64,000 nt of DNA from a candidate division FCPU426 bacterium. GTDB taxonomy: Bacteria; Oederibacteriota; PGYV01; Palsa-1178. Where the stretch lies: the NCBI GenBank assembly GCA_963840035.1, contig CAWIXE010000002.1, forward strand, positions 992,099 to 1,056,098, written 5' to 3'. The notes beneath the pieces are model-generated. The model saw nothing but the letters and a program-made list of their open reading frames with translations, was not told where the DNA came from and did no database searches. The number at the start of each line of letters is the position of its first letter. The stretch's first letter is position 1. Shown piece by piece: positions 2,623-19,479 of this stretch. A program made the position numbers and the translations under genes.

Positions 2623-2780
2623 TTTGTCATTGCGAGGAGGCGTTTTTGTAATTTGCCGACGAAGTCCTTCGACTTCGCTCAGGACCATGAGCCTGTCGAA
2701 TGGCAATCCCGCTGTTCCAGAAGGAGAAAACGCGATTGCTTCGTCGCCATAAGTCAACTACGGTTCCTCGCAATGACAAA
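2623..2780. repeat. ~158-bp palindromic MITE/REP-like intergenic element, copy 1
   Basis: Terminal inverted repeats 'tttgtcattgcgagga' / 'tcctcgcaatgacaaa'; internal core 'aagtccttcgacttcgctcaggaccatgagcctgtcgaatggcaatc' identical to copy at 18519..18668. Confidence 0.75.
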
Positions 2781-2869: not shown

Positions 2870-4726
2870 CTAAAAAGGAATTACCCCGCCCACCAGCAAC
2901 TGTATATTCCCCGCCGACATTGAATCCACTCCGTCAGGAAGCGGGCTGCTCATTATGGATGTGTAGCCAATGAGCCCGTCCAGCTGGATTTTTCCCATGG
3001 CATATCCCGCGCCAAGCGTTATTGTAAGGTCGTTTTGGTTGGGATTATCAGCGGTGCCCGGCGCCGGGCCGCTTACTCCTCCGGCTTTGGTTTTTTCAGA
3101 GGTTGTTGAAAAAGATAAACCGGCCCTTAACGCAAGCTCCCTGGAGAGCTTGTATTCACAACCGGCAGACGCTTTAATTGTGGATTTATCGTCAGTTGAC
3201 TCGCCTCCGGTGTACTTCGCCCCCTGTCCGTTATTTTCAAATTTAAATTCAACGGGTATGAGCAGTGATTCTGAAAGGTTCATCGTCGTGCCGGCTGCTA
3301 TGCCGAGATAGCCAAGCGATATTGTTGTGGGATCCGTATCGGTTGAACTGCTGAAATATTTATACCCCGCGCCTCCTAACTGCACGCCGAGGCCCAGCGT
3401 AAATATTCCGAACCTGTAACGTCCCTTAACTCCGAAGTTCATAAGGGATCCGTCCTTTGCCGGGCTGTATGCAGGCAAATCAGTCGTTGTTGACGCTCCG
3501 GTGCTTATTGTCGTTACAGTCCGTTTGGATGTTGACTTTCCGCCAATCCCGGCTGTCATGCCGAACCCCGCGAGCAATTCAAGATTATCCTTTTCATAAG
3601 CGCCGGCAAGCGATACATTAACTCCTGATGCGGCAATATCCGTGACTGTCGCCACATGAAATCCCATCATCTCATATGTGTCTGTAACTTTAATATTCCG
3701 CAGGTCTATATATGTCTGCGCGCTGTTTACCGAAGGCGCGCTGTATAATGTCATGGAAGCTCCCGGCCATGGCGCGAGCGAGCTTTTATCCGAAACCATC
3801 AATCCTGCCGTAACTTTTCCTGCCGACGCGGCTAATTCAGGGACATATGAGGCTGAAAGCCCCCACTCAATCTGGCTTGTCTCTGTTTTTGTGAGCGCGC
3901 CAAAAGCCAGGTCGCCAATTTCGTCAAACCATCCTCCGTTATAGCCGGCATATACGCCGGCTGAAAATCCGCGGAAGATCAGTCTTGAGTACTCAACCTG
4001 AGTCATAAGCACATTCGCAGGCGCCTTGACTTCCGTTGAGAATCCGCCGCCGGACATTTTTGTGGCAAGCCCTACGTTCATATAGAATAATTTCAGGTTA
4101 AGGACATCACTGTTTGTCAGCCAGTACGTGACAGCGCTATAATTCCTTACCGGATCGGCCGACAGCGGGAATCCGCCGCCGCCCAATTCAAATGTGGAGT
4201 CAATAGGGGGTGATGACACGGACTTTGACCAGGCGCTGAAATAACCTGTTATTGCAGAGGCCAGGTTCTTTCTCGGCCTTAAAACAAGGCCCGAAGCGAA
4301 TCCGGTACCGCCGTACATGTCAAAAGCCGACGACGCGTCGCGCAGTGTAAGCTCAGGGGCGCCCAGCGCAGCCATCCTGCTGTAACTGCCGTTGTAATAA
4401 TAAGCGCCGCCGCCTGCCGCGCCGCGGGGTTTTAAGGAATCAATGTATTTCTTAAGAGCCGGTGATTTTTTTATTTCATATGATTTTTCCAGGTATTGCG
4501 CCGCGCCTGCCCTGTCCTTCATGGCCAGCCTGCAGTACCCCATATACATAAAAGCCGCAGCGTTTTTGGGGTTTAAAGACGCAGCGCCTTCAAAAGCCGT
4601 AAAAGCGGCTGAATACTTCTTTTGGGCATATAGCTTCGAGCCATTTTCCATATAGGTTTTTTCAGAAATACCGAACAACGAAATCGAAAACATGAACAGA
4701 ATGATTATAATTGCGTTTTTTTTCAT
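2870..4726 (-). CDS. secreted TPR-containing protein with C-terminal beta-rich (outer-membrane-like) region
   Basis: Signal peptide (MKKNAIIIILFMFSISLFG), TPR-like N-terminal segment, Gly/Ser/Thr-rich alternating C-terminal region ending in aromatic residue. Confidence 0.5.
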   Translation of the reverse strand: MKKNAIIIILFMFSISLFGISEKTYMENGSKLYAQKKYSAAFTAFEGAASLNPKNAAAFMYMGYCRLAMKDRAGAAQYLEKSYEIKKSPALKKYIDSLKPRGAAGGGAYYYNGSYSRMAALGAPELTLRDASSAFDMYGGTGFASGLVLRPRKNLASAITGYFSAWSKSVSSPPIDSTFELGGGGFPLSADPVRNYSAVTYWLTNSDVLNLKLFYMNVGLATKMSGGGFSTEVKAPANVLMTQVEYSRLIFRGFSAGVYAGYNGGWFDEIGDLAFGALTKTETSQIEWGLSASYVPELAASAGKVTAGLMVSDKSSLAPWPGASMTLYSAPSVNSAQTYIDLRNIKVTDTYEMMGFHVATVTDIAASGVNVSLAGAYEKDNLELLAGFGMTAGIGGKSTSKRTVTTISTGASTTTDLPAYSPAKDGSLMNFGVKGRYRFGIFTLGLGVQLGGAGYKYFSSSTDTDPTTISLGYLGIAAGTTMNLSESLLIPVEFKFENNGQGAKYTGGESTDDKSTIKASAGCEYKLSRELALRAGLSFSTTSEKTKAGGVSGPAPGTADNPNQNDLTITLGAGYAMGKIQLDGLIGYTSIMSSPLPDGVDSMSAGNIQLLVGGVIPF

Positions 4727-5271: not shown

Positions 5272-7197
5272 CTATTTTAGGATTACCATCTTTTTTGTTA
5301 TCGTTTTACCCTGCGCCGATACCTTTATCAGGTACACGCCGCTTGCGGCTTTCATTCCGCGCTCATTGTCAAGGTTCCATACAACTTCGTTAATCCCCGG
5401 CCGGGTGGCCGCGGCTGTAAGGGTTTTAGCCCAGACCGGCTTATTATTGATATCGGTAATCAACATACCCGCCTCACAGCTTTCCTTTAGGGGGAACCTT
5501 ATCGTTGTAAAATCCCGGCACGGGTTTGGATAGTTATAAGTCTCTGCCGGGTCAAGGGTCTCATAACGAGATTCAACAACTATTGGCGCCGGATTTTTAT
5601 CCGCAAGGACAAAAACCCTAGCGCATTTCTTGCGGGTGTCAATGGCATACTCAACGCCGCATTTCCCGCAGTAAATAATGACACCTTCCGGGAAACCCCT
5701 GGTTAAGAACAACCTGAATAAATTGTCGGCAATTACGCCAAAGTTGGACTTATTGCATCCTTTTTCAGCCATATTGAATTCGCATGATTTTATGGCATGG
5801 CCCTTTGACGGCAGTTCTATATAAATCTTTTCAAGCTTTGTAAAATGGTCATGGGACATCCTGAACCTGAAAACATGCATGCATTTAACTGCTGTCGTTG
5901 CCGGAGTTATTTCGGTTGTGGGCACTTGTGTAGGCATCACGGTTGCCGTCTCTTTAATTATTACAACCACTGTCGCTGTTTCAGTTGGTGTTTGTGTAAA
6001 TGTTTCTGTATCAACAGGCGTTTCAGTAAACGTTTCAGTATTGGTTGGCGTTTCAGTAAACGTTTCAGTATTGGTTGGCGTTTCAGTAAACGTTTCAGTA
6101 TTGGTTGGCGTTTCAGTGAAGATTTCAGTATTGGTTTGTGTTTCAGTGAAAGTCTCAGTATCAGCAGGAGTCTCCGTGAACGTCTCCGTGGCTGTAAATG
6201 TTTCCACAGGCAGCTGCGTCGGTTCTTCAATACGCAGTTCAAAAACAGCTACGCCTTCAGGATAGTTAAACTGCCCCGGCAACGGGCCCTTTACAGCCCC
6301 GAAACTCTTTTCAAACAGTCCATCGGAATTAAATTTCTGTACCCTGTTATTGCCGGCGTCAGCCACATATACATAACCCTCTGAATCCACTGATATGCCG
6401 TATATGTCGCCAAACTGCCCCGCAGCCGCGCCTTTGCTTCCCCATTTTAATTCAAACGCGCCCTCGCGCGAGAACCTCTGCACCCTGTAATTATTCGCGT
6501 CAGCCACATATACCCTGCCGCTGCTGTCGATTGCGGCGGCGCGCGGGTAATTGAACTTGCCTTCCGCCGACCCTATTCCGCCGATTATCTGAAGCGCGTT
6601 GCCGAACGCGTCAAGTTTTTTAACCCTGTTATTTAAAGTATCACATACATATATCAGTCCTGTAACGGTGTCAACTGCCACACCCTGGGGGTTATTGTAG
6701 TCCATGATACCGCTGCCGGCCTTTGTTGAGCCAAAAGTCATAGCCCATGTACCGTCAGCGTTTAAGACCTGTATTCTGTTGTTTCCGGTGTCAGCCACTA
6801 CCACGCGTTCAAGCCCGTCAGTGACTATAACTGCAATGCTGTTCGGGCTGGAAAAACCGCCATTAAGCTTGCTGCTTGCCGGCCCGCCCCAGGTCCCGCG
6901 CCAGTTTCCTGAAGTGTCAAATACCTGCAGCCTGTTATTACCCGTATCAGCTACATATATAAGGCCGCTTGCCATTCCTGCCGCAATGGAACCCGGATAA
7001 CTAAACTGGCTTACCCCGCTGCCTTTTGAGCCCCATGACATAATAACATTGCCGTCAAAATCCATTGATTGGATCCTGTAATTTGAGGTATCAGAGATGA
7101 ATATCGAGCGGATTGTCTGGGCTTGTGTATTATTTGCCAGGAGTAAAAGTACTGTAAGGCTGGTCAGCGTTTGTAGGAGTGATTTTTCTGTTTTCAT
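5272..7197 (-). CDS. secreted NHL-repeat protein with Thr-rich tandem-repeat linker and T9SS-type (Por/FlgD-Ig-like) C-terminal domain
   Basis: Start set at MKTEKS (RBS AAGGAGGTG upstream); repeated 'YVADTGNNRLQVF'-type NHL blades; 'TNTETFTETP' repeats; C-terminus 'NYPNPCRDFTTIRF...GVYLIKV...KKMVILK'. Confidence 0.7.
   Translation of the reverse strand: MKTEKSLLQTLTSLTVLLLLANNTQAQTIRSIFISDTSNYRIQSMDFDGNVIMSWGSKGSGVSQFSYPGSIAAGMASGLIYVADTGNNRLQVFDTSGNWRGTWGGPASSKLNGGFSSPNSIAVIVTDGLERVVVADTGNNRIQVLNADGTWAMTFGSTKAGSGIMDYNNPQGVAVDTVTGLIYVCDTLNNRVKKLDAFGNALQIIGGIGSAEGKFNYPRAAAIDSSGRVYVADANNYRVQRFSREGAFELKWGSKGAAAGQFGDIYGISVDSEGYVYVADAGNNRVQKFNSDGLFEKSFGAVKGPLPGQFNYPEGVAVFELRIEEPTQLPVETFTATETFTETPADTETFTETQTNTEIFTETPTNTETFTETPTNTETFTETPTNTETFTETPVDTETFTQTPTETATVVVIIKETATVMPTQVPTTEITPATTAVKCMHVFRFRMSHDHFTKLEKIYIELPSKGHAIKSCEFNMAEKGCNKSNFGVIADNLFRLFLTRGFPEGVIIYCGKCGVEYAIDTRKKCARVFVLADKNPAPIVVESRYETLDPAETYNYPNPCRDFTTIRFPLKESCEAGMLITDINNKPVWAKTLTAAATRPGINEVVWNLDNERGMKAASGVYLIKVSAQGKTITKKMVILK
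6021..6140. repeat. 30-bp in-frame tandem repeat, 3 perfect + 1 degenerate copies, inside NHL-protein gene
   Basis: Unit 'tttcagtaaacgtttcagtattggttggcg' at 6021, 6051, 6081; degenerate copies flank. Confidence 0.85.
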
Positions 7198-7373
7198 GTC
7201 GCTCACCTCCTTCGCAGTTCCCCTCTCATTTGTAATATAGCTCACAAATGATTTTTTGTCAAGTATTATGTTAAGTATATTGTTAGTATTTAACTAAAGT
7301 GCACGAAAACGCCACTAAAATATGGTGAATTTTTGAAATATCGAATATTGTGTTTTTTGATTTTTTGCGTTTT

Positions 7374-17629: not shown

Positions 17630-18481
17630 CTACCCAGCTTGAATTATCGTATTGTCAATCAACCTGGTTTTGCCCACATATATCGCTGCCGCGATTAAAG
17701 CGCTGCCGGTTATCTTTTCGAGCGGCTTTAATGTCTTAGCGTCGACTATCTCCACGTAATCTATCTCTATGTTTGATTCCTTTAGTTTCCTTCTTATTTC
17801 CTTCTTCAGCGTATCGCAGGACTTTTCCCCGAGTTCTATCATGCTTTCCGCCATCTGCAGCGACTTATAAAGCGCCGGCGCGGTATTGCGCTCCTCAGGC
17901 GTTAAGTACATGTTCCTGGAGCTCAGCGCGAGGCCGTCCTTTTCCCTGAAAATCGGGCACACCACAACCTCGGTCTGATAGTTCAGGTCGGCGGCCATCT
18001 TTGTCAGCACTACGGACTGCTGCGCGTCTTTCTGGCCCAGGTAAAGCCTGTCGGGTTTTACTATATTAAGGAGCTTAGTCACTATGGTAGTAACGCCCTT
18101 AAAATGTTCGGGCCTTGTAATGCCGCAAAGGCATTTTGTCATTTCATTTTCGAGCGCCACGTACGTGGCGTACCCTTCCGGGTACATCATGGCGTTGTCC
18201 GGCGTAAACACGCAGTCAACTTTTTTCGACGCCTTTAGCATTTTCAGGTCCTTCTTAATGGGCCTGGGATACTTTTCAAAATCCTCGCCGGCCCCGAACT
18301 GTGAGGGATTCACATAAATGCTTACTATGACCTTTTCATTTTGCTTATCAGCTGCCTCAACAAGCGACATGTGCCCTTCATGAAGCGCGCCCATAGTCGG
18401 GACGAACCCGATGGTATGGCTGCGTTTCTTCAGCTTTGCCGTGTATTCATGCATTTCACTTAAAGTACCGATAATTTTCAT
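17630..18481 (-). CDS. panC: pantoate--beta-alanine ligase
   Basis: 'GFVPTMGALHEGHMSLV' HIGH-type motif, 283 aa. Confidence 0.9.
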   Translation of the reverse strand: MKIIGTLSEMHEYTAKLKKRSHTIGFVPTMGALHEGHMSLVEAADKQNEKVIVSIYVNPSQFGAGEDFEKYPRPIKKDLKMLKASKKVDCVFTPDNAMMYPEGYATYVALENEMTKCLCGITRPEHFKGVTTIVTKLLNIVKPDRLYLGQKDAQQSVVLTKMAADLNYQTEVVVCPIFREKDGLALSSRNMYLTPEERNTAPALYKSLQMAESMIELGEKSCDTLKKEIRRKLKESNIEIDYVEIVDAKTLKPLEKITGSALIAAAIYVGKTRLIDNTIIQAG

Positions 18482-18518: not shown

Positions 18519-18668
18519 GTCATTGCGATGAGGCGCCTATTACTTCGCCGACAAAGTCCTTCGACTTCGCTCAGGGCCATGAGCCTGTCGAATGGCAATC
18601 TGGCTGTTTTAGAACTTAAACCAGATTGCTTCGTCGCCATAAATCAAATACGGCTCCTCGCAATGACA
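18519..18668. repeat. ~150-bp palindromic MITE/REP-like intergenic element, copy 2
   Basis: TIRs 'gtcattgcgatgagg' / 'cctcgcaatgac'; shares identical 48-nt core with 2623..2780; sits between panC and panB. Confidence 0.75.
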
Positions 18669-18690: not shown

Positions 18691-19479
18691 TTAATAATAA
18701 TTCTTTTTACCCGGGAACTTCCTGCCTCTGACGTCAGCCGAGAATTTTTTTACGGCTGTCACGGTGCGCGCCGCTATCTTTTCATATTGTTTTACAAACG
18801 ACGGCTTGAAATCCTCAAACGCTCCGAGCATGTCGTGCGTGACAAGCACCTGTCCGTCGCACCATGGCCCCGCGCCTATGCCGATGACCGGCACTTTTAC
18901 AGCTTTTGTTATCTCAGCGGCTGTTTTTGCCTCTGTTTTTTCCAGGACAATCGAGAAAACGCCGGCTTTTTCCAGCTGCATGGCTTCCTGTATAAGGCGC
19001 TGCTTGTCTTCCTCTGTCCTTCCCTGCACCGGATACCCGCCGTATTTATTCACTGACTGGGGCTGAAGCCCTATGTGGCCCATGACAGGCACGCCTATGG
19101 CTACCAGCGCCTTAACCTGCGGGATTATCTCTGCCCCGCCTTCTATTTTTACGGCGGACGCGCCTGATTCTTTCATTAACTTTCCGCAGTTCTTCAGCGC
19201 GTCTTTTACGGAAGCCTGATACGTCATGAACGGCATATCAGCCACAACCATGGTTTTTAACGCGCCGCGCTTTACCGATTTCACGTGGTAAATAACCTCT
19301 TCAAGCGTAACCGGAAGAGTGTCTTTTATCCCCTGAAAAACCATTCCAAGGGAATCGCCCACCAGTATTATATCGACGCCTGATTTTTCGAGGTATGACG
19401 CCATCAGGTAATCATACGCGGTAAGCATAACTATCTTCTGTTTTGACTTAAGTGATTTGACGAACGGGGCGGTAAGCAT
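18691..19479 (-). CDS. panB: 3-methyl-2-oxobutanoate hydroxymethyltransferase
   Basis: 'KIVMLTAYDYLMASYLEKSGVDIILVGDSLGMVFQG' PanB signature. Confidence 0.9.
   Translation of the reverse strand: MLTAPFVKSLKSKQKIVMLTAYDYLMASYLEKSGVDIILVGDSLGMVFQGIKDTLPVTLEEVIYHVKSVKRGALKTMVVADMPFMTYQASVKDALKNCGKLMKESGASAVKIEGGAEIIPQVKALVAIGVPVMGHIGLQPQSVNKYGGYPVQGRTEEDKQRLIQEAMQLEKAGVFSIVLEKTEAKTAAEITKAVKVPVIGIGAGPWCDGQVLVTHDMLGAFEDFKPSFVKQYEKIAARTVTAVKKFSADVRGRKFPGKKNYY

Follow-up and report, generated by a model that had tools for sequence, protein, structure and literature searches.

Two palindromic intergenic elements of a candidate division FCPU426 bacterium are probably nested, REP-like repeats of the Ssn/SRM kind

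The stretch of DNA analysed here (the window; 64,000 nt, GC content 46%) carries two copies of a non-coding, palindromic composite element, both in + orientation and both intergenic, with all neighbouring genes on the - strand (Table 1). Copy 2 lies 23 nt past the panB stop codon and 37 nt ahead of the panC start. The copies, 152 and 149 nt long, occupy the two sites proposed in the first-pass annotation, which had been made from the letters alone, and align with 129 matches, 20 mismatches and 3 gap columns (85% identity), while the DNA flanking one is unrelated to that flanking the other. The core pattern of the element matched the window twice, against 0.00 matches expected from 100 shuffles, and no further copy or half-copy was found in the 64 kb. 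An independent assembly of the same organism (Logan ERR11594406; L001 1-135) contains a contig that terminates inside copy 2, as is expected of a dispersed repeat, and suggests that the repeat breaks short-read assemblies. It should be added that an NHL-repeat protein of 657 aa is encoded in the window at 5272-7245 on the - strand; it has a T9SS C-terminal sorting domain and, internally, about six tandem copies of TETFTETP(T/V)(N/D). The host probably belongs to the FCB group or to a related candidate phylum.

Table 1. Coordinates of the two composite elements and of their constituent units within the window
Feature	Position	Strand	Remarks
Composite element, copy 1	2626..2777	.	Intergenic: OMP beta-barrel/TPR gene (2870-4726, -) / S49 peptidase gene (1554-2474, -)
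NTS/SRM-like unit L, copy 1	2626..2708	+	GTC|ATTGC...GCAAT|C; 39-mer inside expanded loop; frame compared with NTS CGTCATTCCCGC..GCGGGAATCYRG (PMC11893778)
Nested 39-nt doublet (the 'core' of the first-pass annotation), copy 1	2665..2703	+	TCC TTCGAC TTC GCTCA GGA / CCA TGAGC CT GTCGAA TGG
Half-unit P, copy 1	2665..2684	+	Clamp TCC/GGA round TTCGAC-TTC-GCTCA; holds A2684, the sole core difference between copies
Half-unit Q, copy 1	2685..2703	-	P-type unit on - strand; clamp CCA/TGG
NTS/SRM-like unit R, copy 1	2734..2777	-	GTC|ATTGC GAGGAACCGTAGTTGACTTATGGCGACGAA GCAAT|C
Composite element, copy 2	18519..18667	.	Intergenic: panB (18691-19479, -) / panC (17630-18481, -)
NTS/SRM-like unit L, copy 2	18519..18600	+	GTCATTGCGATGAG...GCAATCTGG; 3' flank AATCTGG fits NTS AATCYRG
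Nested 39-nt doublet, copy 2	18557..18595	+	P 18557-18576, clamp TCC/GGG with T.G pair; Q 18577-18595, clamp CCA/TGG
NTS/SRM-like unit R, copy 2	18624..18667	-	..GACGAAGCAATCTGG

Two inverted outer units, one per strand, make up the terminal inverted repeats and the GCAATC/GATTGC stem of each copy. Terminal repeats of about 18 bp, as first described, are real and measure 17 nt in copy 1 (GTTTGTCATTGCGAGGA / TCCTCGCAATGACAAAC), but in copy 2 only GTCATTGCGA(T/G)GAG is left, 14 nt with one mismatch. The 47-nt core had been taken to be identical between the copies and to be the one conserved part. It differs at a single base (A2684 in copy 1, G18576 in copy 2), and the paired modules have all been kept (left repeat 16/17, right repeat 13/14, GATTGCTTCGTCGCC 16/17), differences being concentrated in the unpaired linkers and the apex (5 mismatches and 1 gap in 12 columns; 6 mismatches and 2 gaps in 20 columns).

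The core is a separate 39-nt module nested in an older repeat, and not part of one MITE. Its boundaries were set by comparison of the window, CGACGAAG-[39 nt]-CAATC, with the host consensus CGACGAAGCAATC, according to which the left unit was interrupted within its loop, at CGACGAAG^CAATC. The doublet of copy 1 scores 62 bits with model R1. Two collections, of genomes and of viral contigs, were scanned with the pattern CCTTCGAC-N(2-6)-GCTCA-N6-TGAGC-N(1-5)-GTCGAA, slightly narrower for the viral contigs. Exact arms were recovered from at least 120 genome stretches and 7 viral contigs, the genomes belonging to NC10, Nitrospirota, Desulfobacterota, Planctomycetota, Verrucomicrobiota, Acidobacteriota, Omnitrophota, Ignavibacteria and CPR, and the loci being mostly intergenic and otherwise unrelated in sequence. 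The insert was 39 nt long in 118 of 127 instances, with G at position -1 in 85 and C or T at +1 in 115 of the same 127. A second type of host, of different sequence, is another core split at TGAG^C, whose insert again starts with TCC and ends with YGG, giving identical 39-nt boundaries.

Across phyla the arms of the 39-mer are palindromic and conserved (14 + 6 + 13 bp, the six being a spacer), and covariation ties the six bases of the loop to the tails. The first half of the loop (positions 1-3) pairs with the opening triplet of the insert, the second half (positions 4-6) with its closing triplet. Among 92 distinct sequences the 4 variable pairs gave 133 double-change cells, a value exceeded in 0 of 500 shuffles, and clamp pairing of 99% fell to 26-41% once the partner was slid, every slid control collapsing. 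Since no linker separates the 11-bp stem from the tails, this pairing is incompatible with the stem. The 39-mer is a head-to-head pair of ~20-nt units of the form NNN-TTCGAC-x-GCTCA-N'N'N', each with its own 3-bp clamp; such a P-type unit thus consists of a conserved sequence of 13-14 nt (TTCGAC-x-GCTCA) and a variable clamp. The base by which the cores of the two window copies differ is a clamp base: the third pair of unit P is T:A in the first copy and T.G in the second. Outside canonical doublets, perfectly complementary triplets flank 38 of 60 units, as against 8.1 +/- 2.2 after shuffling (maximum 16), and the single units with perfect clamps use 12 different triplet pairs. A diverged copy, L040, has kept the clamp rule with its first pair changed.

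The half-unit organisation was revealed by a tandem array met in the search for permuted (B-outer) forms. One array lies in the structural region of a Mu-like prophage (L173 5440-5680; IMGVR_UViG_3300045918_000844) and has a period of 70 nt, its repeat (TGG-TTCGAC-AA-GCTCA-CCA, a CGAACGG...CCGTTCG hairpin and CCC-TGAGC-TA-GTCGAA-GGG) occurring at least three times ahead of a terminator-like hairpin. More single units are found between the head and tail genes of the same contig. Units nested in each other or arrayed occur at L007, L069, L089 and L121 as well, and in L073 (1773-1824, - strand) the GTCGAA arm of one copy is interrupted by a unit pair whose 10-nt loop reads GGG-TCGA-TGC; 4 bp of the target, TCGA, are duplicated, and the middle of the loop repeats them. 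Nesting is reportedly also seen among the small dispersed repeats (SDRs) of cyanobacteria (an observation attributed to Elhai and colleagues, 2008). Core-type hairpins were also noted at or beside GAAGCAATC in three more independent contexts (L168 185-326; L169 8361-8492, with duplicated GCAATC on the flanks; L170 ~1660-1760), which hints at GAAGCAATC being preferred as a target.

Several other accounts of the pairing between loop and tails were considered and rejected. A pseudoknot or small ribozyme disagrees with the lack of a linker between the 11-bp stem and the tails, with the unbiased orientation of the loci and with half-units having clamps of their own. A tiny circle integrating by attP x attB with a 2-nt overlap was dropped as the -1/+1 positions pair with the loop in only 81%/74%, against ~98% for the 3+3 clamp pairs. 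Guide pairing of IS200/IS605 type and group-II-like EBS/IBS pairing both predict an insert of 36 or 33 nt, the triplets belonging to the empty site, whereas the host consensus gives 39 nt, and insertion into 6-bp palindromic targets disagrees with the window, where the clamps arrived with the insert.

The outer repeat has a distribution of its own. Pairs of GTCATTGCGA...TCGCAATGAC are present in 33 viral contigs, and the 49 elements extracted follow the common plan GTCATTGCGAG(G/C)...CGAAGCAATC-[variable apex]-GATTGCTTCG...CTCGCAATGAC. The core is absent from 47 of these 49 and is found only in the two window copies. Outer repeats sit between structural genes of genuine phages, and their half-sites also occur single, paired or stacked with a period of 23-41 nt. 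Stacks of GTCATTGCGAGG half-sites with this period were observed at the edges of palindromic elements in phage contigs (L137 3026-3160; L150 691-900, 3349-3580 and 5502-5672; L129, L134, L156, L160), with up to ~30 half-sites per 13 kb. Junction-specific patterns for the composite gave random matches in viral contigs and 3 matches only in metagenomes. Much of the first-pass description, that of a MITE-like palindromic element, holds good in that the element is non-coding, palindromic, multi-copy and probably mobile. The idea of selection on a core within one element finds no support in the form given: the core is an independent module that recurs in unrelated contexts and is missing from the 47 other scaffolds bearing outer repeats.

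Among cultured plasmids and phages, BLAST searches returned no match for the element and only noise for the 39-mer consensus, save one lead: a Sphingomonas plasmid with a GIY-YIG gene (106 aa) weakly matched at its 3' end, the gene terminating in CCC-TTCGAC-TTC-GCTCA-GGG-CGAACG. From this entry point, ~95-aa GIY-YIG genes with P-type units on their flanks were found at 7 of 7 fetched loci (L174-L179, L182). The genes of L175 (Altererythrobacter sp. Root672, LMHH01000001.1 1610691-1613378), L176 and L177, of 94-95 aa, are framed on either side by a hairpin of the form unit-CGAACGG...CCGTTCG-unit. The one upstream stops 19-24 nt short of the start codon (46 nt in L174), and the downstream one starts 13-20 nt past the stop codon. 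In a second subfamily, of 101 aa and Syntrophobacter-like (L178, L179), the related loop CCTTCGATACCTCAGG is held in 7-8-bp clamps on the flanks, and a 99-aa relative from Thiocystis (L182) has the loops TGAGT-TT-GTCGAA and TTCGAG-TG-CCTCA, the first in a clamp of ~10 bp. Clamps of 7-10 bp round a conserved loop in these subfamilies indicate that the clamped hairpin with a conserved loop is the real unit.

Among the 120 best homologues of the Sphingomonas protein, 79 are at least 100 aa long, and 65 of these read through into units, the unit translations forming tails PSTSSGRTE, LRLRSGRT, SFDRLRTNG, LRQAQGER, VRPEPVEG and FALSLSK. The family profile recovered 22,106 representatives (E<=0.001; 50% identity); the best 149 were inspected, of which 108 were extended and at least 53 carried unit translations. 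Gene callers run on into the flanking repeats, and many database GIY-YIG proteins (P0003-P0389) have in consequence acquired spurious N- or C-terminal extensions, some exceeding 300 aa or fused to the gene that follows. As regards units of exactly the GTCATTGCGAG type, the link to a GIY-YIG gene consists of one read-through tail, that of P0262, which also contains HCERSEAI...LLRYARND, an outer-repeat-type translation, and of related, non-identical repeats in two viral contigs (L184, L185), whose GIY-YIG genes have GTCATGGTGAGGAGCGG-type repeats on their flanks, close to the window's GTCATTGCGAGGAGCG. The terminal repeat GTCATTGCGAGGAG of the window (2626-2639; V I A R S) was also seen to resemble the last codons of the GIY-YIG gene in L175 (1444-1488; GTA TTG GCG AGG AAT, V L A R N), which may be due to chance or may mean that the repeat is derived from, or overlaps, a gene end in some lineages.

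Pfam PF01541 is the sole family match of the associated GIY-YIG clade, NCBIfam models gave no match to its proteins, and in the PDB two UPF0213 proteins, 1zg2 and 1ywl, come nearest. Profile searches found no Ssn-like ORF in the 64-kb window (E<=10), and in loci L001-L174 only that of L174 itself, so that a cognate enzyme of the host is assumed here, not seen. In agreement with the first-pass annotation, which saw no transposase in the window, no transposase-like partner lies near the element.

The closest characterised counterpart is the Ssn system. Ssn proteins (cd10448) are ~94-aa, single-domain GIY-YIG, site-specific ssDNA endonucleases (Chenal et al. 2025, Nat Commun 16:2388, PMC11893778). 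They bind hairpin repeats, namely the NTS CGTCATTCCCGCGMAVGCGGGAATCYRG, which contains dRS3, and more generally SRMs, and cut just upstream of the repeat while ignoring dsDNA and RNA, neither of which is bound by SsnA (PMC11893778). Cutting of the NTS depends chiefly on the three bases 5' of the palindrome and binding on the C 3' of it; replacement or extension of the loop is tolerated, and the typical gene order is NTS-ssnA-NTS (PMC11893778). Its role in Neisseria is to limit the recombination of incoming DNA, and an IS-like origin has been proposed (PMC11893778).

The outer units of the window have the NTS frame, GTC and ATT... ahead of the palindrome and ...AAT and C behind it. In all four, GTC stands directly 5' of the palindrome (GTC|ATTGC) and C directly 3' of it (GCAAT|C); YRG after this C is found in both units of copy 2 (TGG, so that AATCTGG equals AATCYRG) and not in those of copy 1 (CCG, GCG). 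The features critical for the NTS are therefore present. Further likenesses are the multi-copy short hairpins, the loop that tolerates insertions and, for P-type units at loci outside the window, the ~94-101-aa single-domain GIY-YIG gene in repeat-gene-repeat order. There are also differences. The stem of the outer unit has 5 bp, as compared with 8 bp in the NTS, and the P-type unit is reversed in plan, its loop being conserved and its clamp variable; such units are joined in 39-nt inverted doublets, are nested and are spread over many uncultured phyla and phages. The associated clade, with its PF01541 match and UPF0213 structures nearest, may belong either to cd10448, the class of Ssn, or to the UPF0213/YhbQ group. 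Finally, the published SRM pattern, HGTCWYN(0-2)YYVSBRHN(0-5)WNVSBRGN(0-2)RNCYNB, had 0 matches in the window and in L174-L179 and L182, while the NTS, as positive control, was matched. A match of the core to a known element, which the first-pass annotation had said would speak against its reading, was found in part.

The CGTC-tagged REPs, of which dRS3 is one, are mostly head-to-head dimers and have been reported without a dedicated Y1 transposase (Di Nocera et al. 2013, PMC3733652). Like those of Neisseria (dRS3), Rickettsia (RPE-4/-6) and Wolbachia, the element described here is intergenic, has a (C/T)GTC tag ahead of a small palindrome, forms head-to-head dimers and lacks a Y1 transposase (PMC3733652). 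Theirs, however, have an 8-9-bp stem, a 4-5-nt loop and a CCA tail (PMC3733652), as against a 5-bp stem and a purine-rich loop of 10-70 nt that carries further modules. The SDRs of cyanobacteria (Elhai et al. 2008, Genome Res 18:1484, cited in PMC3116915 and PMC4390886) are likewise mobile-looking ~20-nt modules at precise insertion positions, SDR5 inserting between nucleotides 3 and 4 of HIP1 (PMC4390886); their sequences are unrelated to those described here, and they are restricted to cyanobacteria and not known to have an associated gene. Literature searches with the DNA strings and the repeat-derived peptides returned nothing relevant, and none of the papers searched contains these sequences.

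Taken together with the anatomy set out above, these comparisons make it probable, at roughly 0.6, that the whole composite arose by nesting and belongs, as a non-autonomous, REP-like DNA repeat, to the Ssn/SRM kind. Readings as RNA, as classical MITE, as RAYT substrate or as duplex operator fit the data less well.

A structured RNA, either a small RNA or a cis-acting intercistronic element (a stabiliser, processing site or attenuator, as E. coli REPs can be), would be the selected function under the alternative that survives best, one we regard as unlikely. The genes on the two sides of each copy run in one direction, and the element would be transcribed along with them. Each strand folds into a long, two-branched stem (z -4.3 to -8.5), at -72.1 kcal/mol on the + and -74.2 kcal/mol on the - strand of copy 1 (z -7.9 and -8.5) and at -54.2 and -65.3 kcal/mol, respectively, in copy 2. 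The somewhat greater stability on the - strand, which is the gene strand, leaves room for an RNA role, and the clamp covariation, together with one compensatory change in the GCAATC/GATTGC stem, points the same way. The long hairpin, however, has its conserved bases in the stems and its covarying ones in loop and tails, the reverse of a typical RNA motif, and across loci the 39-mer is unbiased in orientation relative to its neighbouring genes (25 opposite/opposite, 19 same/same, 12 and 11 mixed). The units are moreover nested and arrayed and bracket nuclease genes, and the characterised enzyme acts on ssDNA only, binding neither RNA nor dsDNA (PMC11893778). Rfam searches gave nothing at gathering threshold over the 64 kb and nothing at E<=10 over 2626-2777; at E<=10 over 2500-2900 there were four weak matches (12-16 bits, against gathering thresholds of 44-315), all in or across the flanks. 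From the Rfam searches, the unbiased orientation and the ssDNA-only enzyme, the small RNA entertained in the first-pass annotation receives no support.

Even less can be said for a classical MITE, that is, a deletion derivative of an IS moved by a DDE transposase that recognises the 14-17-bp terminal repeats, which we consider very improbable. Such repeats, a length of ~150 bp, the intergenic and non-coding nature and the presence of two copies are all what a MITE would show. Nevertheless, the 152-nt element is bounded by no direct target-site duplication (TTT/AAA in copy 1, CA/AG in copy 2), and its supposed terminal repeats are free-standing. No gene lies between paired outer repeats in any fetched locus, nor was a parent IS with the same ends and a transposase present in these loci. 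A transposase near the hairpins was also sought by clustering the ORFs of the core loci (L002-L128, 127 loci), with no common family of transposases; only sigma-54 activators were common, to 17 loci, which probably reflects their abundance in Desulfobacterota and related genomes. The raw count is of sigma-54-dependent response regulators in 17 of ~120 39-mer loci (L009-L128).

Mobilisation as REP or REPIN by a RAYT, a Y1 HUH transposase of IS200/IS605 type, follows the same logic as the system proposed here, with short hairpins, inverted doublets, nesting and recognition of hairpins in ssDNA (PMC3116915, PMC3733652, PMC6006769). REPINs, too, replicate as inverted doublets of a short hairpin repeat, with a single-copy gene bracketed by repeats (Bertels & Rainey 2011, PMC3116915). 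We nonetheless give this reading very little credence: the unit ends have no GTAG tag, the units are much smaller (~20 nt and 39 nt), the bracketed genes encode GIY-YIG and not Y1 enzymes, and CGTC-type REPs, as mentioned, have been reported without a dedicated Y1 transposase. A protein-binding site in double-stranded DNA, such as an operator or the core site of a recombinase, would suit the palindromic arms, their conservation across phyla and the 6-bp spacer, but is scarcely tenable given that it predicts neither covariation of spacer and flanks nor single half-units with their own clamps nor clamps of 7-10 bp.

For a composite repeat of the Ssn/SRM kind, the following course of events may be envisaged. 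The units would be the cognate sites of small single-domain GIY-YIG nucleases, which would bind the hairpin when DNA is single-stranded (in replication, transformation, conjugation or phage DNA) and nick nearby. Genes of such nucleases, bracketed by units, would resemble insertion sequences, and orphan units and doublets would spread in trans, landing at purine^pyrimidine steps and often within other palindromes. In the lineage studied, an inverted pair of NTS-like units would have gained the 39-nt P-type doublet in the loop of one unit, and the composite would then have been duplicated whole, giving the two copies of the window. The host may possess a cognate nuclease that cuts these sites and drives their spread; mobility as such is suggested by the nesting and by the diversity of contexts. 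When co-transcribed with panB-panC or with the OMP and S49 peptidase genes, the element would form a very stable intercistronic stem-loop as a by-product, and this may affect transcripts running through it, including those of the panB-panC operon.

A bolder interpretation is that the ~20-nt clamped units and 39-nt doublets are the ends and the non-autonomous derivatives of an unrecognised class of nano-transposons, whose sole protein would be the ~95-aa GIY-YIG ssDNA nuclease. This enzyme would read the conserved loop on any short stem and cut and rejoin at purine^pyrimidine steps, and would so have seeded many phyla and their phages. We put this forward tentatively, as possible and on balance doubtful; if true, it would mean a second, differently organised recognition code for programmable ssDNA nucleases.

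The kind of system described here is already known, from the REP literature since 2013 and, as to the enzyme, since 2025. What appears to lie outside the published motif is the unit with a conserved loop and a free clamp, the 39-nt doublet with its nesting, and the dominance of such units round a very large GIY-YIG clade. For annotation, it matters that many public GIY-YIG entries bear false extensions translated from the repeats, which also break assemblies. For the diversity of Ssn systems, the SRMs were defined from cultured genomes with one degenerate pattern, which the repeats of the window escape, and a second repeat architecture, with conserved loop and free stem, brackets a GIY-YIG clade of 22,106 representatives. 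Furthermore, that the repeats are spread by these enzymes is a hypothesis of the Ssn paper, and exact 39-nt insertions, nesting and arrays are the type of evidence required to address it.
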